Below are positions 18,117 to 62,978 of a DNA stretch of 64,000 nt, piece by piece. This stretch comes from Anaerolineae bacterium (GTDB taxonomy: Bacteria > Chloroflexota > Anaerolineae > Anaerolineales > UBA4823). The DNA is taken from positions 23,997 to 87,996 of the forward strand of contig QEXX01000120.1 of assembly GCA_003130835.1 (NCBI GenBank), written 5' to 3'. The notes below the pieces were generated by a model. It saw only the letters and a program-made list of their open reading frames with translations, did not search any database and was not told the DNA's origin. A program made the translations under genes and the position numbers. Positions within the stretch are counted from its first letter, which is position 1, and each line of letters starts with the position of its first letter.

Positions 18117-19759
18117 TGGGCTTGATTGCCTCCGTTTTTTGAAAACCCGCTTGCCATGAGCAGTTTATTCAATGCAGCCAAGTAAGCCTTGGCAGCAGCG
18201 ACGATGATATCGGTGTCGGCGCCATAGCCGCCGAAGGTGCGCGTGCGGGTCTGACCGTTTTGAGGCGAGGTGCGCTCGTGCAGGCTGGGATTTTCCGCTT
18301 GAAGGCGCACGGTTACTTCACCCAAGGCATCGATTCCTTCTGTTACTGCATGAACATTGAACTCTAACAAGGTATTGGGAGCACCGACAATGGCATCAAT
18401 GGCACGGTAGGTTGCATGCACAGGCCCGGTGCCTACAGCAGCGTGTATCTGAGTCTGCCCATCAGGACCACGCAAGCGCACTGTGGCGGTAGGCATCCCC
18501 ATCGTGCCACATGCCACCTGTAATCCATCCAGAGTATAGAACTCTTCACCGCGGCTTGCCTGGTCGCCTACCAAGGCTTCTAGGTCTGCTTCGGTGATCA
18601 CTTTCTTTTTATCTGCCAGTTCTTTATAGCGCTCAAAGGCAGCGTCCAGTTCTTCTTTGGTGAGTTGGTAACCCAGTTCTTCCAAATGCACGCGCAAGGC
18701 GTGTCGGCCGGAATGCTTGCCCATCACCAGTTTGGAGCGCCCCAAACCGATCGTTTCTGGGCGCATAATCTCATAGGTTTCCTGATGCTTCAACATACCA
18801 TCTTGATGAATGCCGGCTTCATGAGCAAAGGCATTGGCGCCGACAATAGCTTTGTTGGGTTGCACCGGGATGCCGGTATAGGTTGAAACCATGCGACTGA
18901 CGCGGGTGATTTGGGTCGTGTCGATGCCGGTGGTCAGTCCGAACAAGGCGCGGCGGGTATGCAGAGTCATAACGACTTCCTCTAGGGAGGTGTTCCCCGC
19001 CCGTTCGCCAATCCCGTTAATGGTCACCTCTGCTTGGCGGGCGCCGGCGCGAATGCCAGCAATGGTATTTGCGGTTGCTAAGCCAAGGTCGTTATGGCAA
19101 TGCACCGAGACAATGGCTTTCTCAATGCCATCGGTATTGGCGATAATGTTGCGGATCAGGTTGCCAAATTCGTCTGGGGTGGTGTACCCGACGGTATCGG
19201 GAATATTGATCGTCGTCGCACCGGCTTTGATGGCTTCCGATAGAACAAGGTAGAGGAACTCGGGTTCACTGCGCCCGGCATCTTCCGGTGAGAACTCGAC
19301 ATCTTCACACAGGCTACGGGCGTAAGCCACCATTTCTTTGACCCGCTCGACCACTTCTTCCGCATCCATGCGCAGTTTATAGCGCATGTGGATCGGTGAG
19401 GTGGCAATGAAAGTATGGATGCGCGGATGGGCTGCATATTTCACTGCATTCCAAGCTGCGTCAATGTCCTGCTTATTAGCACGTGCCAAACCACAGATGA
19501 TCGGCACCCGACGTGTGGTTTCGCCTTCGCCCCACACGGTATTGCCTACCTGCTCGGCGATCATGCGTACCCCTTCAGCATCATCGGGCGAGGCAGCCGG
19601 AAAGCCGGCTTCGATGACATCCACGCCAAGGCGAGCTAGGGCGCGGGCGATCTCCAGCTTTTCCGCCGAGGTCAAACTTGCGCCCGGCGATTGTTCCCCA
19701 TCCCGCAAGGTGGTGTCAAAGATGCGAACGTAATTGGGTTGAATGGTTGTCGGGTTCAT
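18113..19759 (-). CDS. leuA: 2-isopropylmalate synthase
   Basis: [22 protein letters not shown], and a C-terminal LeuA allosteric domain. Start taken at ATG 19759 (MNPTT). Confidence 0.9.
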
Positions 19760-30533: not shown

Positions 30534-31932
30534 ATGACACCCCTTTCGCAAGATACTCTCTTTCGCTTAGAAGATTTTACTCTCCTAACAGCAAGACGGA
30601 AAAACGTCTTGTCCTCGCCGAAACAATATGGGAGCTCGGATGAAGATGCGCGACCCTATCTGATTGAGGGTGGTTGGCACTTAATTCATGCTCCTCAGGA
30701 AATACAATTTCAACCCAACACAAGTGAAGCCGTGCATCGTTGGTCGCCTTATGTGCAGGGCTTTTCAGCTAGTTTTGTCCAACGAACCCTTGAAAGATAT
30801 CGAGACGAGTACAATGTCCCAAAAGTCCTGGACCCATTTGCCGGCAGTGGAACGGTACTGGTGCAATCCAAATTCAATGGATTTCCCTCTTTTGGCATCG
30901 AATTAAACCCTCTTTTACACTTCATTACTAGTGTAAAGGTTGCCAATTGGCATATCGATCCGCAAAGGTGGTTGAGCACGGTAGAAATGTTGCTTGACAC
31001 AAGCCGTAGCCTTTCTACACCCAATTTCACCGCTCCATCCTTCCTGAAATCAGAAACCCATTTTCGAGCACCTGTTCTACGTAATCTGGAGAAACTTAAG
31101 GCGACAATCGATTGGCTGGATCCCGTAGACCCTGTAATGCAGGGGATTAAGAATCTATGTCTCCTTGCTTTTGCTTCAATCTTGATCGATTGCAGTAATC
31201 TTAAGCGTTCGCCTTGCCTGGGTTATTGCCGAACGAAAAAGGTTGAGGATGACGCACCGTTCCATCTTTTTGCCCAGAAAAGCAGACAAATAGCAGCCGA
31301 TTTAGAATTCTGCCAAAGTCAGTATGCCGCTGTACTGAACACGCCAAGCACGGTATTTTTGGGGAATTCAATGAGCCTTGGCTTGCCTGAAATGGTCGAC
31401 TTGATTATCACGTCTCCCCCCTATATGAATGGCCTTGACTATGTGATGAACTATAAAATTGAAATGGGTTGGTTGAATTTTGGACAGAGTCATCGGCAAC
31501 TTATTAAAAGATCAGATGGTGGTTTGCGATAACGTTTCTAAGGGTTTGATCCGAGATTTCGCTCAAACCGCTGGTTATACCCATCCATGGATTGAGCGAA
31601 TTAAAGCGGATATTCGGGACAGCATCAAGCGCAGAGGGAACTACCGTCGTAAAGATATGCCAGAAATTGTGCACAAATACTTTGATGATATGCACCAAGT
31701 TATGCGCAATGTGGTGCAATATCTGAGAAAGGGTGGGCGATTTATTCTTGTTGTCGGCGATAGCCTCATTGCAGATGTTTACGTACCGACTGACTTGATC
31801 CTGGCACGTATGGGGGAAGACCTTGGATTACGGGTTGAAAAGTTGGAAAAGGCTCGAGAGCGCCGTTCAGGTCAGATCCGCAGCTATCGTTTACGTGAAA
31901 CGATCCTTACGCTATACAAAGAGGTCGAGTGA
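30534..31932 (+). pseudogene. Amino (N6A/N4C) DNA methyltransferase split by a +1 frameshift
   Basis: Motif [11 protein letters not shown] and motif IV SPPYMNGLDY lie in frame 0, which stops at 31532. The C-terminal third continues in frame +1 from about 31500. Alignment by eye to the intact paralog at 53771..55255 places the shift at 31495-31512 (cttattaaaagatcag). Confidence 0.75.
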
Positions 31933-32864
31933 GTCGAGACGAATTGGGATTTCTGGACAGTCCAATTAATGGCTTAGGAATCATTAGAGCAAGGACACTT
32001 TTAGGCAACCTCCGTCTTTGGGATATACCTCGCTCCGAACAAGCTCTTCAAATGGTGATTCAAGAAATTGGGGTATCCCCTATTCCAGCACTCTACATTT
32101 TGATTGATGATCGATCTGAGAAGAAGGTTTATATTGGACAGTCGGAGGATATATCGGCGCGCTTGACGTCCCATCTCAAGTCTGCGGATCCAAAGATCAA
32201 GAATTGGCAGAGAGCCTTAATCTTAAACGATGGCAGAAATGCGTCACAGTCAGACTTAAACGATGAAAATATTCGCTTAACCCTAGAAAATTATTTGGTA
32301 TCTCTATTCAAACTTAATCGCTATCAAGTGGTCACCGCAGTAACCCGTCAGCCAAGCTTGTCCTCGTTAGAGGCAATTATTGTTGCTGCATTTCGACAAG
32401 AGATCAATATTCTTTTGTCCAATAAAGGGAGAATCTCTCGTTTCCTGAGCGGGAAAAGAGACGATGAGTTTTACCTTGACAAAGTTAGAAAAATCCTCTC
32501 TCGCAAAGGATACCAAGTCGATCAATGGGGAGAGAAGTATGCCATGGTGAATGGTAAACCGGTCATCATTCGGCCCGGCAGCCTGAAGCAAAAAGGTTGG
32601 CAGGTCACCTTTCGCGGCAGTAAGTCGCTTGCTCAACTAAAAAAAGGAGAAGGTACTCTGCTCATGCCGCGCGGCCAAATCGTTTACCTTCCTCTCCAGG
32701 AGATTGCAGACTTCATTCGCGATATTGATCCCCAAGCGTTTGAAAGAGATACCCTTGATATCTTTATTCGCTTTGAAGAAGAGCAGTTGTGGTTAGTCTA
32801 TAAAAACGGACAGAAAGATATTACACCTACAATATTTCCTTATTCCGAGAAAAAAGAAATATGA
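31929..32864 (+). CDS. GIY-YIG domain nuclease (putative restriction endonuclease partner)
   Basis: ALYILIDDRSEKKVYIGQSEDISARLTSH matches GIY-(10-11)-YIG-x-R-x3-H. The GTG start overlaps the methyltransferase stop (GTGA). Confidence 0.6.
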   Translation: MSRDELGFLDSPINGLGIIRARTLLGNLRLWDIPRSEQALQMVIQEIGVSPIPALYILIDDRSEKKVYIGQSEDISARLTSHLKSADPKIKNWQRALILNDGRNASQSDLNDENIRLTLENYLVSLFKLNRYQVVTAVTRQPSLSSLEAIIVAAFRQEINILLSNKGRISRFLSGKRDDEFYLDKVRKILSRKGYQVDQWGEKYAMVNGKPVIIRPGSLKQKGWQVTFRGSKSLAQLKKGEGTLLMPRGQIVYLPLQEIADFIRDIDPQAFERDTLDIFIRFEEEQLWLVYKNGQKDITPTIFPYSEKKEI

Positions 32865-33841
32865 AAGAATACCTGATCACCGGCGTGGCTGGCTTTATTG
32901 GGGCGCAGGTTGCCGAACGATTGCTGCGGGCGGGCAACCAAATCTATGGGGTGGATAATCTGAACGATGCCTATGATGTGCGCCTCAAAGAATATCGCCT
33001 CCAACAGCTTCAGACCTTCCCCAATTTCACCTTCGAACGCATGGATATCGGGGAAGCCGAGTCCGTGCAGCGCTTGTTCGCCAAAATGCCCGCTGAGGGC
33101 TGGCAAGCAGTGATTAATTTGGCGGCGCGTGCCGGGGTGCGTCAGTCCCTGCTCGACCCGTGGGTGTATTATCAGACCAATGTAACCGGCACGCTCAACT
33201 TGCTCGAAGCCTGTCGTCAGAACGGGGTAAAGAAATTTGTTTTGGCTTCTACATCGAGCGTCTATGGGGCAAATGCGCCTTTGCCTACTCCCGAAGAGGC
33301 ATCCAGCGATTTCCCGTTACAACCTTATGCCGCTAGCAAGAAAGCGGCCGAGGTTTTGTGTCATACTTATCACTATCTGTATGGTTTGGATGTCAGTGTG
33401 GTGCGTTATTTCACCGTTTACGGGCCGGCCGGACGACCGGATATGGTCATGTTCCGCTTTGTCCAGGGGATTCTTGAGGGCAAATCGATTACGATCTACG
33501 GCGATGGCACCCAATCGCGCGGTTTCACCTACGTAGAGGACATTGCTGAGGGCACGATTTTAGCCTTGCAACCCTTAGGATATGAGATTGTGAATTTGGG
33601 CGGACACGAGACGATCCAAATTGGCGAGTTGTTGAGCTTACTGGAGCAGTTAACCGGCCGGCGCGCTCAGGTTCATCATGCACCACCCCACCCAGCCGAT
33701 ATGTACGCCAATTGGGCGGACACGCGCAAAGCCCAAACGCTACTCGGATGGCAACCCAAAGTCGGCTTACAAGAGGGGGTGCAAAGACTGGTGGCGTGGT
33801 ATCTACAGGAGCGCGCCTGGGCAAGCCAAGTGGTCACATGA
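32861..33841 (+). CDS. NAD-dependent nucleotide-sugar epimerase/dehydratase (UDP-glucuronate 4-epimerase-like)
   Basis: GVAGFIGAQV Rossmann motif, the YAASK catalytic motif, and an extended SDR length. Confidence 0.88.
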   Translation: MKEYLITGVAGFIGAQVAERLLRAGNQIYGVDNLNDAYDVRLKEYRLQQLQTFPNFTFERMDIGEAESVQRLFAKMPAEGWQAVINLAARAGVRQSLLDPWVYYQTNVTGTLNLLEACRQNGVKKFVLASTSSVYGANAPLPTPEEASSDFPLQPYAASKKAAEVLCHTYHYLYGLDVSVVRYFTVYGPAGRPDMVMFRFVQGILEGKSITIYGDGTQSRGFTYVEDIAEGTILALQPLGYEIVNLGGHETIQIGELLSLLEQLTGRRAQVHHAPPHPADMYANWADTRKAQTLLGWQPKVGLQEGVQRLVAWYLQERAWASQVVT

Positions 33842-37729: not shown

Positions 37730-37737
37730 ACGAAAAC

Positions 37738-38156
37738 CCAGGCCGGTCTATAAGCCGCATTCTGTCCAGCGGTGCTGCCCCATCGCGCCGCAGCGCAACT
37801 TGGCAGCCGCTTGGGTGATCATCTCTCTAAGGGCACGCGTAGCCGCGCACCTCATGCGGCCTACCCGGAACTCGGGGGAAACCCCAGGAGACGAGCAGCC
37901 TCCCCGCTTGCGCGCTTGTTCCTGCTTGGCCTTGCTCCCGACGGGGGTTACCTGGCCAACCGCATTGCTGCGGATGCCGGTGGTCTCTTACACCACCGTT
38001 TCACCCTTACCCTGCCGTTTGTGGCAAGGCGGTATGTTTCTGTGGCCCTTTCCGGCGGGTTACCCCGCCCCGGGTATTACCCGACGTCGTGCTCTCTGGA
38101 GTGCGGACTTTCCTCAGCCCTGACAAAGCAGAGCCGCGATCACCCGACCGACCTGG
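37738..38156 (-). ncRNA. rnpB: RNase P RNA, bacterial type A
   Basis: The minus strand carries GAGGAAAGTCCGCAC, ACAGAAACATACCGCC, GGGTAAGGGTGAAACGGTGGTGTAAGAGACCACC and ACAGAATGCGGCTTATAG. P1 pairs CCAGGTCGGTC (5') with GACCGGCCTGG (3'). Confidence 0.92.
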
Positions 38157-50805: not shown

Positions 50806-51765
50806 ATGGAAAAATCTGTGCTCCTTCCGGCTCCCGACCCTAGTCGCTTGGCAAAGGGTTACCTGATCTGCGTCGCCGCCACGATTTCGTGGGCTTTCAC
50901 CGGCATCTTCATTCGCTATTTGACGGTCAACTACCAGCTTTCCCCGCTGACGCTTTCTTTTTGGCGCGATGTCTTTGTGGTGCTGGGGTTAGTGATGATC
51001 TTTTCTGTTGGCAACCGAGCGCTCTTGCCGCCCGGCAAGGGGCGCTTGCCCTATTTTGCGCTTTATGGGGTGGTGGTTGCTTTGTTTAATGGCTTATGGT
51101 CGTTTTCGGTGGCGCTGAACGGCGCGGCGGCAGCCACCGTCTTGGCGTATAGCTCGGCTGCTTTCACCGCTTTGCTCGCCTGGCGGCTGTTCCGTGAGCC
51201 GCTGACCCCGATCAAAGTTCTGGCCGTCTCTTTGGGTTTGGGGGGCTGTGTACTGGTAGCAGGGGCGTATGACGCCGCGGCTTGGGCGCTCAATCCTTTC
51301 GGTATCTTGACCGGTTTGTGTTCGGGTTTGATCTTTGCTGTCTATAGCTTGATGGGAAAATTTACCGCCAATCGGGGCATTAATTCCTGGACAGCTCTGC
51401 TATATTCTTTCGCTTTCGCCGCTCTTTATTTCTTGCCGCTCAGCTTGCTGGGTGGTTGGCTGCAGGGCGTTTCCCCCCTGCAAAGCCTCTTTTGGCTGGG
51501 AAATCGTCCGCTGGGCTGGTTGGTGCTGTTCGTCCTGGGGGTTGGGCCGACCGTTGGCGGATTTGGCTTTTACAGCTTAAGCCTGAACTATTTACAAGCC
51601 AGCATTGCCAACCTGATTGCCATGATGGAGCCGTTGATTACGGCTGTCTTGGCTTATCTCTTGCTCGGTGAACGCCTGACTCCGCCGCAATTGCTGGGTG
51701 GAGGGATGATTTTAGGCAGCGTGCTTATCTTACGTTTGTTTGAGATGCGCTCGGGGAATCGATAG
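50806..51765 (+). CDS. DMT superfamily (EamA-type) transporter
   Basis: Ten hydrophobic segments and a duplicated EamA-like architecture. Start taken at ATG 50806 (MEKSV). Confidence 0.8.
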   Translation: MEKSVLLPAPDPSRLAKGYLICVAATISWAFTGIFIRYLTVNYQLSPLTLSFWRDVFVVLGLVMIFSVGNRALLPPGKGRLPYFALYGVVVALFNGLWSFSVALNGAAAATVLAYSSAAFTALLAWRLFREPLTPIKVLAVSLGLGGCVLVAGAYDAAAWALNPFGILTGLCSGLIFAVYSLMGKFTANRGINSWTALLYSFAFAALYFLPLSLLGGWLQGVSPLQSLFWLGNRPLGWLVLFVLGVGPTVGGFGFYSLSLNYLQASIANLIAMMEPLITAVLAYLLLGERLTPPQLLGGGMILGSVLILRLFEMRSGNR

Positions 51766-51941
51766 GTCTAAATCAAAGTAGCGAGGAAGGCTTTTGCGGC
51801 AGACGAAGGGTGGGGCGTCCGGCTACATGGGCAAAAAAGATGGACAATTGCAGAGCCATGAAAGGAAGAATCATTTTTTGATCTGGTCAAAATGCTGCTT
51901 TGCCGATTTTTCCTTTTCGGTCTCAATGTCCGCAGGAGTTT

Positions 51942-52547
51942 TTACGTTTTACGTAATGATAGTCTCCGCCCAACGGTTTGAGTGTCCGGTGGAGAGACGG
52001 GCATAGATAAAACTCCAAAATCTCTTGCATCCCGGACGGTGATCGTGCGGTAGCGGAAGTCAATATCCTTAACCCGCAATCGTATGCATTCCATCAAACG
52101 TAGACCGCAGCCATAGAGCAAACGTGCCATCAGCAGGTTTGTGCCCGGGAGATTGGTCAATACATGCTGCACCTCCTGCCTGGTTAGGATGGTCGGCAAA
52201 CGCTTTGGCTTCTTAGTATGCAGGGCATCGAGGGGGTGTTCCAAGTCTTTATGCAACACCTCTCAGTAAATGAGAAGCAATGCACGGTAGGCTTGATTTT
52301 GGGTGCAGGCGGCAGCATTTTCATTCACAGCCAGGTGGGTAAGAAAAGTCTCGATTTCGGCAGCGCCCATCTCGGCGGGGTGGCGTTTGTGATGGAAGAG
52401 GATGAAGCGGTGCACCCAGTCCACGTACGTGGTCTCGGTGCGATAGGAATAAGGTTTGAGCCGCAGGACTTTGCGCAGTTAGTCGAGAAGTTTCTTCGCC
52501 GTGATTGATAAAGCTCGGGAAGTATGATATGATGATTTTGCAAACAT
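51942..52547 (-). pseudogene. intI: Integron-type tyrosine recombinase (intI) pseudogene
   Basis: The minus-strand reading from ATG 52547 gives ...KKLLD*LRKVLRLKPYSYRTETTYVDWVHRFILFHHKRHPAEMGAAEIETFLTHLAV...TQNQAYRALLLIY*EVLHKDL...[10 protein letters not shown]...[32 protein letters not shown]. In-frame stops are TAA (52479-52481) and TGA (52263-52265). Similarity ends near 52026, before the catalytic H/Y region. Confidence 0.8.
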
Positions 52548-52870
52548 GATACATCTTTTTAGCACTTTGTCAAAATTTTGCTGTTTAGGCTGAGGGTGTC
52601 CGTAATTAACGCAATTATTTAGGCATTTGTCCGATTTTCGCATCAATTGCGGACGGAGGCAAGATATAAGCAGTTATCCTGAAGGATTCAACCTAATCCT
52701 ATGTTTTGCGGGGCATATCTGTGTCTAGGCAATCAAGCAAAGAAGATGGTAAACTAACAAAAGTCACTTTGTTGGCTGACCAAATATGCAGTTTCCTGAT
52801 GCCTCGAAAAGCCATCGGCATGCTATGTCCCCTACAATAGCCTATGTAGGTCCATACCGTTTCTTCTTAA

Positions 52871-53103
52871 CTGACGTTACGCAGTTCATTCGTGCCGCGA
52901 CATTCATGTCGCCTAAATCCACGAGATAAATCATTCGTGCCGCGACATGCATGGCGCCTGAAACCACGAGATAAATCTCGTGCTACCGCGTAAGCGACAT
53001 TCATGTCGCCTAAATCCACGAGATAAATCTCGCGCTACCGCGTAAGCGATATTCATGTCGCCTAAATCCACGAGATAAATCTCGCGCTACCGCGTAAGGT
53101 GAG
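52871..53103. mobile_element. MITE-like insertion with 7-bp target duplication
   Basis: Flanked by TTCTTAA at 52864-52870 and 53104-53110. The imperfect terminal inverted repeats are CTGACGTTACGCAGT and ACCGCGTAAGGTGAG (12 of 17). The interior is tandem repeats and there is no ORF. Confidence 0.5.
52887..53080. repeat. Four head-to-tail repeats (45, 45, 52 and 52 bp)
   Basis: The shared core is GCGACATTCATGTCGCCTAAATCCACGAGATAAAT. Each unit holds two mini-hairpins, GCGACAT/ATGTCGC and CGAGAT/ATCTCG. No spacers separate the units. Confidence 0.85.
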
Positions 53104-53285
53104 TTCTTAATACTCCGGTGATCGAAATGAGCCACCTCATGTTCATGTGGAAAGGGAAGGGAAAATTGCCAAGTTCTGGCTTAACCCAGTACGATTGCGA
53201 GACAGCGGCGGTTTTCGTCCCCACGAAGCCCGGCAGATTCAACAACTGGTGGAAGAGCGAGAAGCGATAATTTTGGAGCAGTGGA

Positions 53286-53597
53286 ATGAGTACTTTAGCG
53301 ATTGAACCACGGCTGGCAAAAGCCCAGGACGTGAAAGTGACAGACGATGAATTGATCGTTGCGCTCGATGATGGGCGGACGATCGTCGTGCCGTTAGTCT
53401 GGTATCCGCGGTTACTGCATGGCACAGCAGAAGAACGAAAGAAATGGCGCCTAATTGGGGGGGGACAAGGCATTCACTGGCCAGAATTGGATGAAGACAT
53501 CAGAGTGGAGCATTTGTTGGCAGGTATTCCATCAGGTGAGAGTCAGAAGTCGCTACAAAAGTGGCTAGCCAGCCGCAAGAAGTCCGGTTCTACGTAG
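53286..53597 (+). CDS. DUF2442 domain protein (partner of DUF4160)
   Basis: VPLVWYPRLLHGTAEERKKWRLIGGGQGIHWPELDEDI matches the DUF2442 pattern. The start overlaps the end of the DUF4160 remnant. Confidence 0.8.
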   Translation: MSTLAIEPRLAKAQDVKVTDDELIVALDDGRTIVVPLVWYPRLLHGTAEERKKWRLIGGGQGIHWPELDEDIRVEHLLAGIPSGESQKSLQKWLASRKKSGST

Positions 53598-53607
53598 GAG
53601 TAGCCCC

Positions 53608-53757
53608 GCCCAACACCGTTTGCAGCGGACACTTCGACTACGCTCAGTGCAGGCGGCGGCTTCGCCGCTTCGGGTATGCGCCATAAGCCAGCAGAGTTGA
53701 TTGCAGGCGAGGGAGTCTTGCCTGTCCCGCCGCTGCCGCTGAAACCAACCGTTGGGC
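53608..53757 (+). other. attC-like recombination site 1
   Basis: R'' GCCCAAC (53608-53614) and R' GTTGGGC (53751-53757) are perfect complements, extended as CCGCCCAAC / GTTGGGCGG. Internal imperfect dyad TTTGCAGCGG / CCGCTGAAA. Sits between cassettes. Confidence 0.6.
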
Positions 53758-53770
53758 GGCTTGGACTGCA

Positions 53771-55255
53771 TTGCCAAAAGGTTGTATACTTGTTGTAACT
53801 GCTACGAATTTGGAGTGTAAAGTGGTGCTAAATCCAGTCCAAGTCTCGAATGTTCTGGGTACCCAACAGAACATATCCCTCAACGAGATAGATCGCCTCG
53901 ACGAGCAGCTCTTTCAGCGGTTCAAAAGCAGGTTCGTCATCCAGCCCTCACTCTCTCGTCTTCTAGTCAGCTTTCAGGCCAATAAGACCAGACCCGTTTA
54001 TCGCTGGTACAGGTTCAAAGAAGCATTCTCTGCTTCTTTAGTGGAACATCTATTTCACAAATACGGAATTACCGCGGGCAGAATCCTAGATCCTTTCGCA
54101 GGAAGCGGAACGGCTCTGTTCGCAGCAAGCGCAATGGGCATAAACGCAGATGGCATAGAGCTGTTACCGATCGGTCACCAGATCATTACGGCCAAACAAA
54201 TTCTGGATGCAGAGTTCACACCCGAAGATTTTGAAAGATTACGCCAATGGGCAGAAATGCGGGTTTGGGAGCAGTCAGAAACGCGTTTCCCCTTACCAGA
54301 ACTGCGGATCACACAAGGAGCTTACCCTGACAGAACAAAGGAAGCCATTGAGAAATATTTGGGTGCATGTCAACAAGAGAATCGCAGAGTTCAGACCGTC
54401 TTGCGCTTTGCTTTACTCTGTGTCTTGGAGTCTATCAGTTTTACCCGCAAGGACGGCCAATATCTTCGGTGGGACTATCGGTCGGGACGCACCCATGGCA
54501 AAAAGATTTTTGACAAAGGGAACATTCCCAGTTTCGAACAAGCCATTTACGAGAAAATCAACGAAATTCTAGCCGATGTATCGCCCACTCACCAAGCCGG
54601 TTTATTCCCTACCGAAAAACTTCAGGGCGAAATTCGTTTGTACGATGGCTCATGCCTTCACATATTACCTACGTTGCCTGATGGGAACTATGATGCCATC
54701 ATGACCTCCCCGCCCTACTGCAACCGCTATGATTACACCCGCACGTATGCGTTGGAACTGGCATTACTGGGGACGAATGAACAAGGGTTGGTGAAACTCC
54801 GCCAGGAGATGCTCAGTTGCACGGTGGAAAACCGCGCTAAAGATCTGTTGGGTATTAATCCGCGGTGGATCACTGCATTGGCTGCTGCCGATAAGCAGAC
54901 GCTGTTACAGGCGATCCTGAAATACCTGGAAGACCAGAAAGCCCAAGGCGCTTTGAACAACAACGGCATTCCCAGGATGGTGAGGGGCTATTTTTACGAG
55001 ATGGCTTGTGTCATTTCAGAGTGTGCGCGTGTCTTGCAACCGAATGCGCTGCTATTGATGGTGAACGACAATGTACGCTATGCGGGCGCAAGTATTTCGG
55101 TGGATATGATACTCTCTGATATTGCTGAACAATTGGGTTTTCGCGTTGAGAATATTCTCGTTTTACCAGACGGCAAGGGCAACAGCAGTCAGCAGATGGG
55201 CGAGCATGGGCGAAAAGCTTTGCGCAAATGCGTGTACGTCTGGAGAAAATTATGA
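53771..55255 (+). CDS. Amino (N6A/N4C) DNA methyltransferase, intact paralog of the 30534 gene
   Basis: Motif [12 protein letters not shown] and motif [14 protein letters not shown] with a gap of about 200 aa between them. The likely true start is GTG 53822, preceded by GGAG. Confidence 0.85.
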
Positions 55256-56211
55256 TGCCCTCGCGCCCTTACCAAAACCATCTCCGCTCTAGCAATGACC
55301 TCGTAACGACTTACGAAGCCACGCGTGCAGGCTTTGTCGCACTTGCGCTTGAAAAGAATCGTCGCGCTACGCCTTACGTTGCCGAAGCGAGAGCATTACA
55401 AGAAGCCGCATCAAGGGCTAGAACCCCTGCTGACTTGCTGAGCATCAGGGGCATAGAATCGGGTCTCCTCACAGCGGCAGGATTGTCCGATAAAGCTCTC
55501 GTTCATTTACAGCCAGAAGATAAAAGGGAAGCCATCACTAATCTTATCAAGAACTTCCTCGATCCGGCAGGAGAAAAGTTTGTAGAGGAGCTGGTGTTCA
55601 GGTTTCTATTGACACGCGGCGACACGCTTGGCGGTTCAATGCGTAACATTGGCGGCGTCCTGGCACAGAGAAAACTTACTCGTGCCATCGTTTCCACCCT
55701 GACAATTGCTGGCATTCGATACCGCTGGCAACACGCCAAGACCAGACAATGGGTTGATATGACCGATGATGACTCGGAAATCGAGTTTTCTCTACGGGGA
55801 TTGAGTTGGGAAAGCGAAGGTAAGCCGCGCACCCTGATTTACAACTTGAGCGTGCCTTTGGTTAAGAACAATATAGATTTGTGCTTGTTCGATCTCAGTC
55901 CTGACGAATTGCAAGCCACCAGGTACAAATCAGCCCGGTCTTATATTGCTCTTGGCGAACTCAAAGGCGGAATAGACCCCGCAGGCGCAGATGAGCATTG
56001 GAAAACTGCGCGAGCGGCACTTGACCGTATCCGTGAAGTGTTTGCCAACGTGAGCCATTCCCCGTATCTCTTTTTTATTGGTGCGGCGATTGAGAAGAGA
56101 ATGGCCACTGAGATTTGGGATCAATTGGAAAAGGGAGTGCTCACAAACGCTGCCAATTTGAACGATCCGAACCAAATTGCATCAGTTTCTCGTTGGCTAT
56201 GTATGCTGTAA
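55252..56211 (+). CDS. Putative type II restriction endonuclease (PD-(D/E)xK-like)
   Basis: ATGA overlap with the methyltransferase stop. The candidate catalytic pattern is IDLCLFD ... [10 protein letters not shown]. No family recognised. Confidence 0.5.
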
Positions 56212-56222
56212 TCGATATGGCC

Positions 56223-56293
56223 GCCCAACAAGCGTTTCCAGCCGACCCGCTCCGCTTCGCTACGCGGGCGGCTGGAAACGCAGGCCGTTAGCC
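56223..56293 (+). other. attC-like recombination site 2
   Basis: R'' GCCCAAC (56223-56229), L'' GCGTTTCCAGCCG, L' CGGCTGGAAACGC (a perfect 13-bp dyad), and R' GTTAGCC (56287-56293). Confidence 0.65.
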
Positions 56294-56326
56294 CGCCTTT
56301 CCGAATCTAGGTGGTAAAATACACAA

Positions 56327-57109
56327 ATGGATAAAAACGATTTTCTGACCGCGCTTCAGACGGAAGTAGCAATGTTTAATTCGGCGGTTTCCACTCCAAA
56401 TGGCGACTGGATTATCAAGGGATTTATTGATATAGCCAAGAACATTTACACTATTTCAGTGGACACAAAAGTTATCTCAAAAATCATGGAACTTTTGTTG
56501 TTCCCAGAACTTGCACGCTTTGCTGAAAAACACGGCTTAAAAATGGTGTTGTCCGAACAACAGAACTCCTATCCAGACATAAGTTTTGTGGATGATGAGG
56601 GTCATCGCTTCGCACTCGACTTGAAAAGCACTTACAGAGTTGATGGCAATCGTGTGAACGGTATGACACTTGGAGCTTTTACTGGATATTTCCGAGAAAG
56701 GAATAGCACAAAAAATATAACCTTTCCTTACGGTTCTTATATGGGTCATTTCGTTTTGGGCGTAATCTATTCAAAAACAGATGATTTGATTGATGAGCGA
56801 AGAAGATACACCCTTAATGAACTTGAGCGGATTACATCTGTTATCAAGGACTTCCAGTTCTTTGTTCAAGAGAAATATCGCATCGCATCTGACCGCCCAG
56901 GAAGTGGCAACACCAAAAACATTGGTTCAGTCACGGAGATTGATAAACTTGTAAATGGCGCTGGACCATTTGCTTCATTAGGGGAAGATGTTTTTGATGA
57001 CTACTGGATGTATTATTTGACCAAAGATATGGCAAGAGCAGCGGAACTGAAACGACCGCCTTACACTAATTTGCGTAGTTATTTAAAATACAAAGGTTTG
57101 TCAAAGTGA
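56327..57109 (+). CDS. EcoRV-like type II restriction endonuclease
   Basis: Matches my recollection of R.EcoRV along its whole length: DTKVISKIMEL, AEKHG, QQNSYPD (EcoRV QQNHYPD, D74), FALDLKSTY (EcoRV IAIDIKTTY, D90/K92) and GSGNTKNIGS (EcoRV GSGNTTNIGS). Confidence 0.85.
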   Translation: MDKNDFLTALQTEVAMFNSAVSTPNGDWIIKGFIDIAKNIYTISVDTKVISKIMELLLFPELARFAEKHGLKMVLSEQQNSYPDISFVDDEGHRFALDLKSTYRVDGNRVNGMTLGAFTGYFRERNSTKNITFPYGSYMGHFVLGVIYSKTDDLIDERRRYTLNELERITSVIKDFQFFVQEKYRIASDRPGSGNTKNIGSVTEIDKLVNGAGPFASLGEDVFDDYWMYYLTKDMARAAELKRPPYTNLRSYLKYKGLSK

Positions 57110-58047
57110 TTAACCAGGGTTTGCCGCGTACAGTAAAACGAGTCATCGTCCCTCCAATAAAGTGTCAGGGAATTAAAACTAAACTTGTCAAATTCATCTT
57201 GAGTAACATTTCCTGGAATGGCAAAGGGCGGTGGATAGAACCGTTTCTTGGATCAGGCGTAGTGTTGTTCAATGTCCAGCCAGAACGCGCATTACTCAAT
57301 GATGTTAATCCTCACATCATCAGGTTATACCAGATGATTTATGATGGAAATCTGTCGCCTGAACAAGTAAGGTCATACTTGACCGCAGAAGGCAAAATGT
57401 TATTGTCAAAGGGCGGAGATTATTATTATGCGGTCAGAGAACGTTTCAATAGAACTGGAGACCCTTTAGATTTTATTTTCCTCAACAGGTCGTGCTTCAA
57501 TGGAGTCATGCGTTTTAACAGCAAGGGTGAATTCAATGTTCCGTTTTGTCGTAAGCGAGATCGCTTTCGTCAAGCCTACGTAACCAAGATAGTAAATCAA
57601 ATTTCTCAAATACATAAAATTATGCAAGGCAAAGATTGGGAATTTCGTGCTGGAGACTGGCGAGAAGTTCTTATGGATGTAGATATAAATGACTTTGTTT
57701 ATCTTGACCCGCCCTACATTGGCAGGCATACAGATTACTATCAACAGTGGTCAGAAGACGACGCGGCAGATTTAGCAAGAATTGCTCGAAACTTGCCATG
57801 TGGTTTTGCGCTGTCTATGTGGAAAGAAAACAAGTATCGTCTAAATCAGCACATTGCTTCCTACTGGGATGGGCTAATAGAAAGAACATTTACTCATTTT
57901 TATCACGTAGGTTCAACAGAAAATCTTAGAAATTCAATGGAAGAAGCCCTATTGATAAAACCTGGTTATGAGACAGTGCTTATTGAGACTGCAAAATCTG
58001 ATAAGCCCATCCAATTGGCGTTTGCCTTACATGAACAGGCAGGCTAA
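57106..58047 (+). CDS. Dam-family (D12 class, alpha) N6-adenine DNA methyltransferase
   Basis: EPFLGSGVVLFN (motif I), NRSCFNG, and YLDPPYIG (motif IV). The GTG start overlaps the REase stop (GTGA). Confidence 0.9.
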   Translation: MINQGLPRTVKRVIVPPIKCQGIKTKLVKFILSNISWNGKGRWIEPFLGSGVVLFNVQPERALLNDVNPHIIRLYQMIYDGNLSPEQVRSYLTAEGKMLLSKGGDYYYAVRERFNRTGDPLDFIFLNRSCFNGVMRFNSKGEFNVPFCRKRDRFRQAYVTKIVNQISQIHKIMQGKDWEFRAGDWREVLMDVDINDFVYLDPPYIGRHTDYYQQWSEDDAADLARIARNLPCGFALSMWKENKYRLNQHIASYWDGLIERTFTHFYHVGSTENLRNSMEEALLIKPGYETVLIETAKSDKPIQLAFALHEQAG

Positions 58048-58105
58048 CCTCGCGCGGCAGCCGACGCCGCCTGCGGCGGCGCAGGTGATGCGCAGGCCGT
58101 TGGAC
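58042..58105 (+). other. attC-like recombination site 3
   Basis: GGCTAAC (58042-58048, overlapping the TAA stop) ... GCGCAGGCCGTTGGAC (R' GTTGGAC at 58099-58105). The 3' arm CGCAGGCCGTT is shared with attC 2. Confidence 0.45.
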
Positions 58106-58149
58106 GGCTTCCTCCAAATTCGGAATATCCCTTAACCCATTCAGGCGGC

Positions 58150-58178
58150 TTGACAGCCGTTGTTTTTTTGCCTATCAT
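58150..58178 (+). promoter_or_regulatory. Near-consensus sigma-70 promoter of the arsR-ATPase operon
   Basis: TTGACA (58150-58155), a 17-nt spacer, then TATCAT (58173-58178). Confidence 0.65.
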
Positions 58179-58199
58179 ATCAGCATATACTGATACGAT
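58174..58199. promoter_or_regulatory. ArsR/SmtB-type operator (26-bp imperfect palindrome)
   Basis: ATCATATCAGCATATACTGATACGAT, with arms TATCAG / CTGATA. It overlaps the -10 and ends 6 nt before the arsR ATG. Confidence 0.6.
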
Positions 58200-58204
58200 G
58201 ATTT

Positions 58205-58567
58205 ATGGAGCGCACGATGCTTATTGCCGCCAATCCCAAGACCGGTGAGTTGAAAGCCAAACTCTTTCGTGGCTTTTCTGACCCGTCACGCCTTGCCATT
58301 CTGGAAGCATTGCGGGATGGGGCGCTCACCGTAAGCGAAATCGTACAAGCCACCGGCTTAACCCAATCAAACGTATCCAATCATCTCGGTTGTTTGCGCG
58401 ATTGCGGACTTGTCACTGCTGAACAGCAAGGGCGCTTTGTTCGCTATGCATTGAGTGATGAGCGTGTTGGACAACTACTCCGCCTTGCGGATGAACTCCT
58501 CGCCGAGGTCGCCAAAGGCGTTTACGAATGCACACGCTATAACGCTAAGGAGTCCAACCATGGTTAA
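58205..58567 (+). CDS. ArsR/SmtB family metal-responsive repressor
   Basis: LFRGFSDPSRLAILEAL...LTVSEIVQATGLTQSNVSNHLGCLRDCGLV is the classic ArsR winged HTH, here with a CxxxC next to it. Confidence 0.9.
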   Translation: MERTMLIAANPKTGELKAKLFRGFSDPSRLAILEALRDGALTVSEIVQATGLTQSNVSNHLGCLRDCGLVTAEQQGRFVRYALSDERVGQLLRLADELLAEVAKGVYECTRYNAKESNHG

Positions 58568-60671
58568 ACTGCAAACCTTGGAAGTCTCCGTCAAAGGCAT
58601 GGACTGTGCCGAATGCGCTCAGCATGTTCAACATGCCATCGCCAAGTTACCCGGCGTGGAGTCCGTCAACGTTTTGCTTGCCACTGAGAAAGCCATCATT
58701 CGGTTTGACCCTGACAAAGTGGACTTAAGCGCTATTCGCAAAGCCGTTGCCAGCGCAGGTGATTATTCCGTTCCTGAAACTACCCCATCAACCGCCGCCC
58801 CGCCGATGGGTGATGCTTCGACAATCTCAGCCCAAGCCTTCAACTGGCAATTGGTTCTATTACTGGCTGGTGTGTTTAGCGTTGTAGTATCCATTGTCGT
58901 TGTGGGCGAATGGCTAGGAATGTTCGAGATACTCAATGAACTTGTGCCGTTCCCTATTGGAGTTGCCATTGTACTTATGGGCGGTTTGCCTGTCTTTCGC
59001 AAAGTGATTCGCGCCACGCTCAAACGGCAAATCATCTCGCATACGCTCATGACCATCGGCGCAATGGCGGCGTTGGCTGTTGGTGAATGGGTCACAGCCG
59101 CGATTGTCGTTGTGTTTATGCGCGTGGGCGAGTACGTCGAAAACTTCACCACCGCAAGCGCCCGCCGCGCCGTGAAAGAATTGACCGCTATCGCGCCGCA
59201 AACAGCCCGCGTGGAGCGCGACGGCGCAGAAGCAGAAGTGCCAGTAGCAGAAGTGAAAGTTGGAGAAATCGTGATTGTCCGCCCTGGCGAAAAGATTCCG
59301 ATAGATGGCGAAGTCATTGCAGGACAAGCCACCATTGACCAAGCGGCTATCACTGGCGAGTCGATGCCCGTTGAAGTGGCAAGCGGTTCGCACGTTTTCG
59401 CCGCCACGATTGCGAAGTTGGGCAGCCTGCGCGTGAAGACTCTCAGTGTCGGCGCGGACACAACTTTCGGGCGTGTGGTCAAAATGGTGGAAGAAGCCGA
59501 AGCTCACCGGGCTGACGTTCAACGTTTCGCAGACAAATTCAGCGCATCCTATTTGCCCGTTGTCATTGGACTCGCCACGCTCACCTTTCTCATCAGCCGC
59601 AATCCGCTTTCCACTGCCGCCGTTCTGGTTGTAGCGTGTTCATGTTCCATCGCCTTAGCAACACCTATAGCAATGCTGGCGTCCATCGGCGCAAGTGCAA
59701 AGCGCGGCTTGCTGATCAAAGGCGGCAAGTATCTTGAGGCATTGGCGCATGCCGATGTTGTGTTGGTGGATAAAACCGGCACGCTGACACTCGGTCAACC
59801 GCAAATCACAGATGTCATCTCGCTCAACGGCTTGCCCACTTCCGAAGTCCTCGCCCTGGCCGCTGCCGCTGAACGCTACTCGGAGCATCCATTAGCCGCA
59901 GCCGTGCGCGCAGCCGCCCGCGCTCAAAATCTGTCACTCTCCGAACCACAAGATTTTGAAGCCATGCCCGGCCTAGGCGTTCGGGCAAGGGTGAACGGTA
60001 GTCTCGTAGCGGTTGGCAACCGCCGTCTGATTCCAGCGGCACAATCCTTGCCACTGGCTCAACAATTGGAAGGGCAAGGCAAGACGCTCTTATTTGTCGC
60101 CCAAAACGATCAACTTGTGGCAGTGCTTGCCGCCGCCGATGCGCTCCGTCCTGAAGTCCCTGGCGCCCTCGCCGAACTGCGCGCCCTTGGCATTAAGCAG
60201 ATTGAACTGCTCACAGGCGACAATCAACGCGCGGCCGCTGCGCTTGCCCAAAAACTGGGTGTTCAGTATCGCGCCAACCTTCTGCCCGAAAACAAGATTG
60301 AAGTTGTGAAGGACTACCAAGCCAAAGGGCATACGGTTGTAATGATCGGTGACGGCGTAAATGACGCGCCCGCATTGGCGCAATCCAATATCGGAATCGC
60401 AATGGGCGCGGCAGGCACAGACATTGCCCTTGAAGCGGCTCATGTGGCTCTAATGCGCGAAGACTGGTCTCTTGTGCCAGAAGTGATCCGCATTGCACGC
60501 CGAACGATGGGCATTGTGAAAATGAACCTGGCGTTTACGGCTGTCTATAATGTGGTGGGGTTGGCATTAGCGGCGCTTGGCATTTTGCCGCCTGTGCTTG
60601 CCGCTGCCGCACAATCGCTACCGGACTTAGGTATCCTCGCCAATTCAGCGCGGCTCCTGCGCCAAAAGTAA
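58560..60671 (+). CDS. Heavy-metal-translocating P1B-type ATPase
   Basis: N-terminal HMA domain GMDCAECA, TGES, DKTGTLT, GDGVNDAPAL. The TM6 motif reads CSC instead of CPC. Start ATG 58560 overlaps the arsR stop by 8 nt. Confidence 0.95.
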   Translation: MVKLQTLEVSVKGMDCAECAQHVQHAIAKLPGVESVNVLLATEKAIIRFDPDKVDLSAIRKAVASAGDYSVPETTPSTAAPPMGDASTISAQAFNWQLVLLLAGVFSVVVSIVVVGEWLGMFEILNELVPFPIGVAIVLMGGLPVFRKVIRATLKRQIISHTLMTIGAMAALAVGEWVTAAIVVVFMRVGEYVENFTTASARRAVKELTAIAPQTARVERDGAEAEVPVAEVKVGEIVIVRPGEKIPIDGEVIAGQATIDQAAITGESMPVEVASGSHVFAATIAKLGSLRVKTLSVGADTTFGRVVKMVEEAEAHRADVQRFADKFSASYLPVVIGLATLTFLISRNPLSTAAVLVVACSCSIALATPIAMLASIGASAKRGLLIKGGKYLEALAHADVVLVDKTGTLTLGQPQITDVISLNGLPTSEVLALAAAAERYSEHPLAAAVRAAARAQNLSLSEPQDFEAMPGLGVRARVNGSLVAVGNRRLIPAAQSLPLAQQLEGQGKTLLFVAQNDQLVAVLAAADALRPEVPGALAELRALGIKQIELLTGDNQRAAAALAQKLGVQYRANLLPENKIEVVKDYQAKGHTVVMIGDGVNDAPALAQSNIGIAMGAAGTDIALEAAHVALMREDWSLVPEVIRIARRTMGIVKMNLAFTAVYNVVGLALAALGILPPVLAAAAQSLPDLGILANSARLLRQK

Positions 60672-62978
60672 GGACGCATGAAAGGAAGCCGTCAAACATG
60701 AATTGCAGGCAGGTAGAGGAAGCGCCGTTTTCCACAGGGGTATCGCCTCGACGGGAAAAGCGGCGGCCATTGCTTGGCGCAGGCGTTTTTCGTCCATCCC
60801 GAACGGTTGCAGGAGGGTGCTGACGGCGCGCAGGAGCAGTTCCCGATAGCGGCGATAGTCCAATTCGGTTGGATGGGGGAGTGCGCCCAAATCCCAAGCG
60901 CGCACCCCGCTTTTTTCGCAGACATACCAGAAACGCACACATTGTCCTGCCATACGCAGTTTTCCTTGTGTTTGCAATTGCCTGGCGGCGCGGGCAGCCG
61001 CAGAGGGTTGACGATATTCTTCAAGCGAGTGGCTTAGTTTCTGGGCAAGGAGCAACTTCTGAGGGGGGACGGCGCCGCGCTTAAGCGCTTCCAATGAGGC
61101 GCGCACAAATTGGATCACATCGGGAATCTGCTCAGCCGCGCTGGTGGCGTCGGGGGCGGCGGCCAGGTGCTCCAAAATTGCCTGTTGCACCTCGGCGATC
61201 CAAAGCGGGGTATCGCGGCGGCGCAGTTCCAAGCCGCGCACTTTCAAGGAACCATCTTGGAAAACGCCAAAATAGCGATTGGGCACCGCGATACGCTCGT
61301 CCCGACGGGAGGGGAGAAAGGCAATCCAACGGTAAATCCCTTCCAAGACAATCGGCAAGCCGGTTCGCCGAGTGATCTCATCCAACAGGGGTTGAAAATC
61401 CGTCGCTTGCTCGGCGCCGCGTTTTTTGACCCATAACCCATCTACGTACAGGTGAAGCACTTCAAAGCCTTGCTGCTCGGCGGCTTCTTTGGCGCGCAGC
61501 AACGCTTCGCGCCCGTAGGCGGTTACAGCTTCATGAGCTTCGATACGCCCAAAGCGGGCGTTCTTGTAGCCCAAATAGCCAAAACAAGTGACCAACAGCC
61601 ACTTATGCGCCGAGGCGCAAGCCTGATATCGTTTGCGGCGCGGGTCATATTTCGGCAAGGTTGCCAGTCTTTTTTTGAGTTCCAGACGCTTTTCCAAGAG
61701 GGGAGAGAGCGTTTGCGGGATCAGGGCGGCTTGAGAAGCCTCGCTCAAGGGCTGCAGGTTCAAGACTGCCGAGCGCGTGTGTGCTGAGGAAGCGATGGTT
61801 TCGGGTGAGATGTTGAAGCGCGCCATGATGCTGGGGTACATGGAGACGAAATCCAATTCGGCAACGTGCTCGTGTAAGCCGGCAATGGGCTGATAGACCA
61901 GCCCCCCCTGATCGCTGGATAAGAGGTCGAGGGCGGTTTTGGGCAACTCGGCTTGCTGTTTATGCCATGGCACCAAAATATTCATCTGCAAAGCCGTGCG
62001 CATTTGCATGGCAGAGATGCCGCTGCCCGGCGAAAGGCGCGCCGCAGCTTGTAACGGTAAGCTGGTCACGCGCGCCATCTCCAAGATGCCCTCGATCCCA
62101 TAGTCGTGATAGAGAACGGCATTTTCGACATCAATGTGCCAACGTCCGAAGAGATAGGCTTGTCGCCCGCGGTGGATGACTTGCCCGTAGGAAAAATAGC
62201 TGCGCTGCGGCCGCCAAGCCACCCCGCGCTGCGGGTCGCGGCTGAGCGGCAGCCGAATGCCTAAGCGTTGTGCTAATCGCAGCAGATAAGGCATCAGCCA
62301 GGTGTCCCCCCAGCGGGTGAGCAACAGATCGGGATCGTGGCGTTGCAGAATGGCGCGTAAGTTGATCAGAAAAGGACGGCTGGGTTGCAATGCCAAACAA
62401 TAACGATAGCGACCGCTGCGCACGTGCAGGTAGGTGGGCGGGGCGTGGGCGGGGTCAACATCGGGTTCTACGTAGAGCATGCGCAGCGGCACAGGAGGCG
62501 CATCGATCTCCCAAGGGGTATCCAGCGTTTCCCAGTGCTGGATCAAACCCGCCGTGTCGATAGCTAAACGGCAGCGCGCCGCAGCAAACGACCCATAGCG
62601 TGCAGCATGACGCAGAGCGAGCGGCACATCGAGGTCGTAATACGTCAGATCGGGGAACACCTGCGTGAGACGCTGAACGAGCCGGGCATGGCTGGCTGCC
62701 TCTTGTACTTGCACCTTCAAAACGCTGATCGGTTGCGCTTGAAAAAGATCCCGCCGTTGGCAGGGTTCTAAATGCACTTGAAAAGGCTGGCGGCGCACAA
62801 AGCGCCCAACAGCGTCCAGCTCTTGTGCTCCTGCGCTCACGTAAGAGGTAATGGGAAAGCGCTGCTTCAGGGCACGGCAAACCACCCGCCCCTGCACGTC
62901 TGGCTGGAGCAGCCAAACGGTCAAAGTGCCTTCTTGGTTGGCATACAGATCCAAAAGCCAGCCTTCGATCTCATTCAT
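60645..62978 (-). CDS. Family B DNA polymerase, archaeal-like, with degenerate exonuclease motifs
   Basis: Motif A is ELDFVSMYPSI. Motif B is KWLLVTCFGYLGY (canonical KxxxNSxYG). Motif C is LHLYVDGLWV, with a single Asp instead of DTD, and VRGLELRRRD is present. The Exo I, II and III positions read LYVEPDV, WGDTWLMPYL and YGIEG, lacking the canonical acidic residues. Confidence 0.85.
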   Translation of the reverse strand: MNEIEGWLLDLYANQEGTLTVWLLQPDVQGRVVCRALKQRFPITSYVSAGAQELDAVGRFVRRQPFQVHLEPCQRRDLFQAQPISVLKVQVQEAASHARLVQRLTQVFPDLTYYDLDVPLALRHAARYGSFAAARCRLAIDTAGLIQHWETLDTPWEIDAPPVPLRMLYVEPDVDPAHAPPTYLHVRSGRYRYCLALQPSRPFLINLRAILQRHDPDLLLTRWGDTWLMPYLLRLAQRLGIRLPLSRDPQRGVAWRPQRSYFSYGQVIHRGRQAYLFGRWHIDVENAVLYHDYGIEGILEMARVTSLPLQAAARLSPGSGISAMQMRTALQMNILVPWHKQQAELPKTALDLLSSDQGGLVYQPIAGLHEHVAELDFVSMYPSIMARFNISPETIASSAHTRSAVLNLQPLSEASQAALIPQTLSPLLEKRLELKKRLATLPKYDPRRKRYQACASAHKWLLVTCFGYLGYKNARFGRIEAHEAVTAYGREALLRAKEAAEQQGFEVLHLYVDGLWVKKRGAEQATDFQPLLDEITRRTGLPIVLEGIYRWIAFLPSRRDERIAVPNRYFGVFQDGSLKVRGLELRRRDTPLWIAEVQQAILEHLAAAPDATSAAEQIPDVIQFVRASLEALKRGAVPPQKLLLAQKLSHSLEEYRQPSAAARAARQLQTQGKLRMAGQCVRFWYVCEKSGVRAWDLGALPHPTELDYRRYRELLLRAVSTLLQPFGMDEKRLRQAMAAAFPVEAIPLWKTALPLPACNSCLTASFHASLLLAQEPR

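Follow-up and report, generated by a model that had tools for sequence, protein, structure and literature searches.

The DNA considered here, hereafter the window, is a stretch of 64,000 nucleotides of contig QEXX01000120.1 (positions 23,997 to 87,996 of the forward strand) from assembly GCA_003130835.1 of an Anaerolineae bacterium. It holds a locus at which the remnant of an integron integrase gene (intI) lies on the minus strand and, pointing away from it on the plus strand, three gene pairs follow one another, each closed by an attC-like hairpin. The first pair resembles a toxin-antitoxin module, and the other two are type II restriction-modification (R-M) systems. The locus is read here, with a probability of roughly 0.9, as a degenerate chromosomal integron of an Anaerolineaceae host, with three captured cassettes and a dead integrase gene. 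An initial annotation, made from the letters of the sequence, had proposed a decayed chromosomal integron with defence cassettes, and the evidence from the integrase, the attC models and the cassette boundaries agrees on that proposal. The host is taken to be an uncultured member of the Anaerolineaceae (Chloroflexota), because the UvrA of the window shares 74-75% identity with its counterparts from Longilinea, Anaerolinea and Anaerolineaceae genomes. The features that carry the argument are as follows.

52023..52547, minus strand: intI pseudogene, N-terminal half only (homology over 52499-52023, two in-frame stops, ending after ITVRDA)
53111..53305, plus strand: remnant of a DUF4160 gene, the toxin-like partner (profile positions 22-65 of 65; 5' end missing)
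53286..53597, plus strand: DUF2442 gene, the antitoxin-like partner, apparently full length (81.4 bits, positions 2-71 of 72)
53608..53757, plus strand: attC site 1, 150 nt (R'' GCCCAAC, R' GTTGGGC; extrahelical base on the L'' arm; 28.5 bits)
53771..55255, plus strand: type II N6/N4 methyltransferase of the BsoBI-type system, cassette 2 (PADLOC MTase_II, 546 bits, positions 27-480 of 481)
55228..56211, plus strand: BsoBI-family endonuclease, cassette 2, full length (Pfam, 564 bits, positions 1-313 of 313)
56223..56293, plus strand: attC site 2, 71 nt (R'' GCCCAAC, R' GTTAGCC; 29.5 bits)
56327..57109, plus strand: EcoRV-family endonuclease, cassette 3, full length (367 bits; PD...D-x-K motif kept)
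57106..58047, plus strand: Dam-family (D12) N6-adenine methyltransferase, cassette 3 (TIGR00571, 184.9 bits; 383 bits, positions 8-292 of 306)
58042..58105, plus strand: attC site 3, 64 nt (R'' GGCTAAC, R' GTTGGAC; degenerate; 14.7 bits)

The locus is not an assembly artefact, since it is present in an independent, near-identical contig of the Joint Genome Institute (L048; 3300038964, Ga0401068_000078, 190,835 bp), set apart from the window only by one single-nucleotide polymorphism and by its number of copies of a 52-bp tandem repeat, and since the point at which intI is truncated also occurs in a relative of 95.6% identity.

The integrase pseudogene

Translated on the minus strand from 52547, intI is interrupted by an in-frame TAA at 52479-52481 and an in-frame TGA at 52263-52265, which align with Gln and Arg, respectively, in full-length homologues, and similarity to these homologues stops directly after ITVRDA at about 52023; both the nonsense codons and the absence of the catalytic C-terminal half had been called correctly from the letters. 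Instead of an intact frame with the catalytic residues R-K-H-R-H-Y, the gene retains a frame from which K, H, R, H and Y have been lost. The remnant scores 196 bits against the NCBIfam integron integrase model TIGR02249 (model positions 1-156 of 315, a half gene set against a whole-protein cut-off of 265), compared with 45.8 bits for XerC and 43.7 bits for XerD, which bears out its assignment to the integron integrases rather than to XerC/XerD or phage recombinases. Repair of the stops also yields a match to the Pfam family Phage_int_SAM_4 (95.7 bits) and to the first part of Phage_integrase.

At E <1e-10, the remnant has about 4,700 matches among database proteins, the best of them at 60-70% identity; those best relatives that are named in their source are called integron integrase, integrase or XerD recombinase, and several come from Chloroflexota. 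Full-length relatives from Anaerolineae, Caldilineaceae and Scytonema loci reach 465-484 bits on TIGR02249 (cut-off 265), and two of them (L020 and L012) adjoin attC arrays. Compared by tblastn, the segment 52499-52023 is 63% identical to residues 2-159 of the IntI of locus L001. Neither a C-terminal intI fragment nor a second intI was found within the 64-kb window when two full-length relatives were used as tblastn queries.

The order of some of these losses can be read from the relative of 95.6% identity, a Logan contig (L049). As it shares the truncation junction and has Arg (CGG) at the position of the window's TGA, the deletion in intI is older than the TGA nonsense mutation. The suggestion that both stops arose by single C-to-T changes is plausible, with the qualification that, for the TGA, the closest relative has CGG and not CGA. 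Over the first 40 or so codons of intI and the DNA upstream, positions 1-331 of L049 (against window 52389-52600) carry a different allele of about 60-65% identity, with a 24-nt insertion and a TGA stop of its own; the junction between intI and the neighbouring transporter gene is common to L049 and the window. Either recombination took place within intI to give this mosaic, or the short-read contig is chimeric.

The attC sites

The hairpins were assessed with two covariance models, for neither of which any site of the window was used. Clear attC arrays were recognised as direct repeats beside intI, on its cassette side, in the following unrelated genomes: a gammaproteobacterial genome, Thiobacillus, Blastocatellia, Calditrichia, Scytonema and Caldilineaceae. 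A first model was built from 13 of these sites, aligned and with the R box and a short L box annotated; applied to 47 intI loci, it returned 57 sites at E <=0.05, nearly all in arrays of the expected orientation. A second model was built from these 57 sites. In loci L008, L010, L024, L030, L040 and L047, the integrase is not divergent from its attC arrays: the arrays follow it downstream and share its orientation.

When the window was searched on both strands (128 kb) with filters off, the two best matches to the first model were sites 1 and 2 (25.2 and 20.6 bits), with site 3 fourth (11.2 bits). The second model placed site 2 first (29.5 bits, E 9e-5), site 1 second (28.5 bits, E 1.6e-4) and site 3 again fourth (14.7 bits, E 0.27). 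Both models drew the ends of sites 1 and 2 exactly where the initial annotation had drawn them. In 661 kb of unrelated control DNA, largely from Chloroflexota and Firmicutes, the highest score was 18.2 bits and six matches reached at least 13.5 bits. Sites 1 and 2 are thus accepted as attC sites by models trained elsewhere, and site 3 is not significant by itself.

Simpler searches were less informative. Each of the cores GTTAGCC and GGCTAAC departs by one base from the strict consensus GTTRRRY/RYYYAAC, and a scan for RYYYAAC...GTTRRRY recovered only site 1 of the three, along with four pairs elsewhere in the window, so the strict consensus is too narrow. An arm-complementarity score anchored on AAC/GTT could not tell the sites from shuffled sequence and was replaced by the covariance models. 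A scan of the window at the Rfam gathering thresholds returned RNase P RNA only (bacterial class A, 37735-38155, minus strand, 262.8 bits) and no attC match. Three further candidates were set aside as chance occurrences: a hairpin at 7035-7104 (ATCCAAC...GTTGGAC), for which the models gave no support, and weak model matches at 18967-19097 and 26534-26590, which lie inside long open reading frames.

All three hairpins and their core heptamers lie at the coordinates first given for them, and the 13-bp perfect dyad described within site 2 is present. The bottom strand of site 2 folds into one hairpin (z -4.9 to -5.5) that has an R stem, a spacer of 3 unpaired nucleotides and a lone extrahelical T on its '' arm; the arms of the site are near-identical to those of an attC in L272. 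In site 1, the R and L boxes pair around a long variable centre and an extrahelical base again lies on the '' arm. Site 3, the R'' of which overlaps the methyltransferase stop codon, folds no better than shuffled sequence (z -0.3); the extrahelical bases sought by folding are therefore a property of sites 1 and 2, and site 3 keeps its cores with an L'' arm that no longer pairs. It nevertheless aligns base for base with strong sites in L215, L193 and L190, retaining GGCTAAC and the L'-R' half and differing in the L'' arm (CACCTG to CAGCCG) and in a shortened centre. From this alignment, site 3 is judged to be a genuine attC in decay.

Cassette boundaries and their recurrence

The strongest evidence for an integron is that the segments behave as cassettes. 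Integron recombination cuts between the G and the TT of R', and the TTRRRY that follows an attC in an array belongs to the next cassette; because the crossover lies at G|TT, the start of a cassette should complement the R'' of that same cassette. Such is the case for both R-M cassettes. The GTTGGGC at the start of cassette 2 is matched in reverse complement, without a mismatch, by that cassette's R'' GCCCAAC, and the GTTAGCC at the start of cassette 3 likewise by its R'' GGCTAAC (7/7 in each case), compared with only 5/7 for the hybrid sites as they stand in the array. The two cores that are one base off the strict consensus are explained by the same rule.

Both R-M cassettes recur elsewhere at 77-84% DNA identity, with homology bounded by the attC crossover points and with different neighbours. 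The EcoRV-type cassette is found in L189, L190, L193 and L215, and other Chloroflexota encode homologues of its endonuclease that are 89-94% identical. A strong attC lies directly 3' of the Dam-type methyltransferase in L190, L193 and L215 (24.2, 40.3 and 47.1 bits, respectively), and in L189 an attC of 29.4 bits lies just upstream of the cassette; further attC sites form arrays. DNA homology to the window begins inside site 2 at 56239 in L189 and just past site 2 at 56304 in L190.

The BsoBI-type cassette recurs in L269, L270, L272 and L289 at 79-84% DNA identity, the homology block corresponding to 53768-56296 of the window, that is, from just after site 1 through the end of site 2. An attC lies 3' of the endonuclease in L272 (40.4 bits), L269 (37.9 bits) and L289 (30.4 bits), as well as in three cyanobacterial loci. 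In L270 and L289, the cassette begins at the same G|TTGGGCGG, after unrelated DNA; in L269, it is preceded by a cassette that codes for a different protein with an SxxK motif, possibly a serine hydrolase, and that ends in a long attC related to site 1. With attC sites attached, the EcoRV-type cassette was seen in Chloroflexota only and the BsoBI-type cassette in Chloroflexota and Cyanobacteria. As a unit, cassette 1 was found nowhere else, and tblastn searches of the 47 intI loci with the cargo proteins returned none of the cassette genes, distant CopA matches being the only hits. In a cyanobacterial locus (Elainellales, L332, 2941-4226), a DUF4160/DUF2442 pair lies on the opposite strand just past the attC 3' of the BsoBI-type cassette.

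Cargo genes

The two type II R-M systems reported in the initial annotation are complete, each consisting of adjacent, full-length endonuclease and methyltransferase genes with catalytic motifs present. The BsoBI-family endonuclease matches PDB entry 1dc1 over the whole chain (E 2e-115), and the EcoRV-family endonuclease matches EcoRV structures (E 2e-39); the public gene call for the cassette 2 methyltransferase starts at 53822. By family membership, the recognition sequences are probably CYCGRG for the BsoBI homologue and GATATC for the EcoRV homologue, the former prediction being the firmer. Palindromes were counted on both strands and compared with an order-3 Markov expectation. For several of them avoidance in the window is strong, namely CATATG (0 observed, 18 expected), CAGCTG (4 and 33), GGATCC (6 and 29) and GRGCYC (20 and 103), which suggests a long history with other restriction systems.

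The DUF4160/DUF2442 pair was identified correctly as to its domains; its DUF4160 gene is 5'-truncated, and a stop codon beside the tandem repeat immediately precedes ..YSGDRNEPPHVHV. Since the DUF4160 partner has no N-terminus, the module is probably inactive.

The locus had also been described as richer in A and T than its flanks. Across the pieces of the locus, G+C content ranges from 0.42 to 0.55, with flanks at 0.535 and 0.589. Cassettes 2 and 3 (0.50 and 0.42) are indeed AT-richer, and cassette 1 (0.545) is close to the flanks.

The space between intI and the first cassette

Between the integrase remnant and the first cassette lie the following features.

52505..52533, plus strand: promoter-like site TTGATA-17-TATGAT with TG, inside the 5' end of intI and directed toward the cassettes (consensus match)
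52573->52546, minus strand: second promoter-like site, upstream of intI and pointing into it (consensus match)
52548..52896, no strand assigned: former attI side, with no recognisable attI or attI-cassette junction
52897..53097, plus strand: 52-bp tandem repeat abutting the truncated first cassette (4 copies in the window)

The 5' end of intI is where the cassette promoter (Pc) is expected. The region holds 15 promoter-like sites, only about two standard deviations above shuffled sequence (8.3, standard deviation 3.4). The 52-bp repeat, the unit of which contains two small palindromes, is present in 4 copies in the window and 8 in the near-identical contig L048, a difference that may be real variation or an assembly effect; no further copies occur elsewhere in the window or in any fetched locus. 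When the attI side, the tandem repeat and the left junction were compared by BLAST with all fetched loci, only L049 matched.

Surroundings of the locus

The integrase remnant and the cassettes share a lineage-specific segment with arsR-copA and a pair of short repeats.

58205..60671, plus strand: arsR-family regulator and heavy-metal P-type ATPase (copA), on the same island, with no bounding attC
51857-51868 (left copy) and 60677-60688 (right copy), plus strand: 12-bp direct repeat CATGAAAGGAAG, bracketing an island of about 8.8 kb

Six related metagenome contigs lack the region 51754-60728 (about 9 kb), which comprises arsR-copA as well as the integrase remnant and all three cassettes; in these contigs, an EamA-family transporter gene, the product of which is 88-90% identical, is directly followed by a family-B DNA polymerase gene. 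At 60645-60728, the last 28 or so polymerase codons are not homologous to those of the relatives and run, on the opposite strand, 27 bp into the 3' end of copA; insertion of the island appears to have replaced the C-terminal tail of the polymerase. A fourth cassette comprising arsR-copA was considered on account of an R''-like GTCCAAC at 58552 and was rejected, as this heptamer lies inside the overlapping arsR/copA coding sequence and its count is that expected by chance. Elsewhere in the window, a second AT-rich stretch (31001-33000, G+C content 0.45) lies beside polysaccharide-synthesis and glycosyltransferase genes and may be another horizontally acquired segment.

Alternative explanations

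The reading that would remove the integron altogether takes the hairpins for GC-rich terminators or repetitive extragenic palindrome (REP)-like elements and the recombinase for a Xer or phage integrase remnant. The hairpins are indeed intergenic and GC-rich, they could not be told from shuffled sequence by arm complementarity, and site 3 folds as shuffles do. The integron integrase model nevertheless scores the remnant four times as high as the Xer models do, attC models trained on other genomes rank sites 1 and 2 at the top with exact ends, and the blocks of homology shared with other genomes stop at the G|TT crossover; moreover, the hairpins lack the T-runs of terminators, the sole terminator-like hairpin with a T-run nearby lying after site 3, at 58144-58161. 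This explanation is effectively refuted. A different challenge leaves the integron in place and makes the array dynamic, an intact IntI encoded elsewhere in the genome excising or reshuffling the cassettes in trans. Sites 1 and 2 are still canonical in structure and have the scores of genuine sites, about half of the attC clusters without an integrase sit in replicons that encode IntI elsewhere (PMC4889954), and the different intI 5' allele and upstream region of the 95.6%-identity relative, from 52389, hint at exchange on the cassette side. That relative is, however, a 1.1-kb contig that may be chimeric, the 64-kb window holds no second intI, site 3 and the attI junction are degraded, and two near-identical assemblies have identical cassette content; continued rearrangement is accordingly considered unlikely.

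A third possibility, which is a variant of the integron reading rather than its competitor, is that the remnant arrived together with arsR-copA on a mobile island of about 8.8 kb and is not an old resident. In its favour are the six contigs in which transporter and polymerase are directly adjacent, the exact direct repeat CATGAAAGGAAG, which occurs in the window at 51857 and 60677 and nowhere else, and the fact that the sequence outside the repeats (91 + 12 + 40 bp) fits the spacer length of the relatives (110-160 bp). Yet the island has no transposase, no terminal inverted repeats and no integrase besides the dead intI; the relatives, at a DNA identity of only 73-83%, also allow loss on their side or stepwise build-up at a hotspot; and the 12-bp repeat was found post hoc, against an estimated chance expectation of about 0.002-0.004. 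Joint arrival is accordingly a tentative option, with the odds somewhat against it. That the direct-repeat-flanked unit of about 8.8 kb represents an undescribed vehicle for moving whole cassette arrays between Chloroflexota chromosomes is decidedly improbable. In that reading, the occurrence of these R-M cassettes in Cyanobacteria as well would point to cassettes being exchanged between the two phyla.

Several observations weigh against the degenerate-integron reading itself. The attC covariance models were built in this analysis, and their E-values are rough. The score of site 3 (14.7 bits) falls within the noise of the control DNA, its status depending on its position and its homology to intact sites. 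The IntI-specific segment of the catalytic domain falls beyond residue 160 or so, in the deleted half of the integrase. As for attI, the only attC-model match on that side scores 8.3 bits (52752-52777), and no similarity was found to the regions upstream of intI at other loci. With respect to the cargo, it is inferred that the R-M systems restrict and methylate DNA and that they stabilise the array; in the 64-kb window, CYCGRG occurs at about 0.5 of expectation, like several unrelated palindromes, and GATATC is not notably avoided.

Proposed history and present state

In the degenerate-integron reading, the integrase would once have inserted three cassettes by recombination at the G|TT of attC sites, namely the DUF4160/DUF2442 toxin-antitoxin-like pair, the two-gene BsoBI-type R-M system and the two-gene EcoRV-type R-M system. 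Decay followed: a deletion took the catalytic half of intI and two nonsense codons accrued in the remainder, next to the 52-bp tandem repeat the first cassette lost its 5' end and the attI junction disappeared, and the last attC was eroded. Both R-M operons have full-length frames and probably still restrict incoming DNA, and the addictive behaviour of such systems, with post-segregational killing of cells that lose them, may explain why they survived the decay that reached intI, attI, the toxin gene and site 3. The array would be unable to rearrange itself. Because cassette 2 is flanked by two structurally competent attC sites, it could still be excised if an integrase were supplied in trans. 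Cassette 3 is probably fixed in place.

Relation to known systems and significance

The class to which the locus belongs can be stated in the terms of IntegronFinder, where an attC cluster lacking an integron integrase is called a CALIN (Cury et al., 2016; PMC4889954). A complete integron combines a functional intI, an attI, a cassette promoter and at least one attC; here, intI is dead and attI unrecognisable, with a promoter-like site and attC sites present. The starts of the sites are 2.6 kb and 1.8 kb apart (limit 4 kb), and the sole intI is a pseudogene, which makes the locus an attC cluster adjoining an intI pseudogene. Like catalogued CALINs, of which 15 of 279 have an intI pseudogene within 10 kb (PMC4889954), it is small and lacks both a functional intI and antibiotic-resistance cargo, and it has two attC sites or more at spacings below 4 kb and a pseudogene within 10 kb. 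Unlike theirs, its pseudogene consists of the N-terminal half only and would be invisible to IntegronFinder's search with the IntI-specific C-terminal profile, and its host is an uncultured member of the Anaerolineaceae.

With the sedentary chromosomal integrons of Chloroflexota and other non-proteobacterial phyla, the locus shares the divergent orientation of intI and cassettes and the attC architecture, and its cassettes are common to arrays in other Chloroflexota; it differs in that the integrase is inactivated and truncated, attI is lost, three cassettes are left and the whole sits in a lineage-specific island rather than at a conserved chromosomal position. R-M cassettes, including XbaI, are established in integrons (PMC10661359). 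Like these, the two described here are complete two-gene type II systems that circulate between arrays as single attC-bounded cassettes; unlike the known examples in Proteobacteria, they belong to the BsoBI and EcoRV families and occur in Chloroflexota and Cyanobacteria. The first cassette has the domain pair of dhiTA, the DUF4160/DUF2442 type II toxin-antitoxin system of Dickeya dadantii (PMC8198452), with overlapping adjacent genes in the same order, the difference being that its DUF4160 partner is without an N-terminus.

The claim that such a locus is unusual outside Proteobacteria does not hold, since integrons in Chloroflexi and attC clusters beside intI pseudogenes (PMC4889954), as well as R-M cassettes (PMC10661359), have already been published, as have the defence cassettes of mobile and sedentary integrons more generally (PMC10661359; bioRxiv 10.1101/2024.07.02.601719). 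Current understanding is therefore unchanged, and the locus is a clear, well-bounded, ordinary example of a well-described kind. As such, it offers a clean instance of integron decay outside Proteobacteria, and it illustrates that a pseudogene search based on the IntI-specific C-terminal profile would overlook N-terminal-only intI remnants. BsoBI-type two-gene R-M cassettes are documented in both Chloroflexota and Cyanobacteria. Finally, an eroded integrase, attI and one attC alongside two intact R-M cassettes is the pattern expected if addictive cargo stabilises an array.

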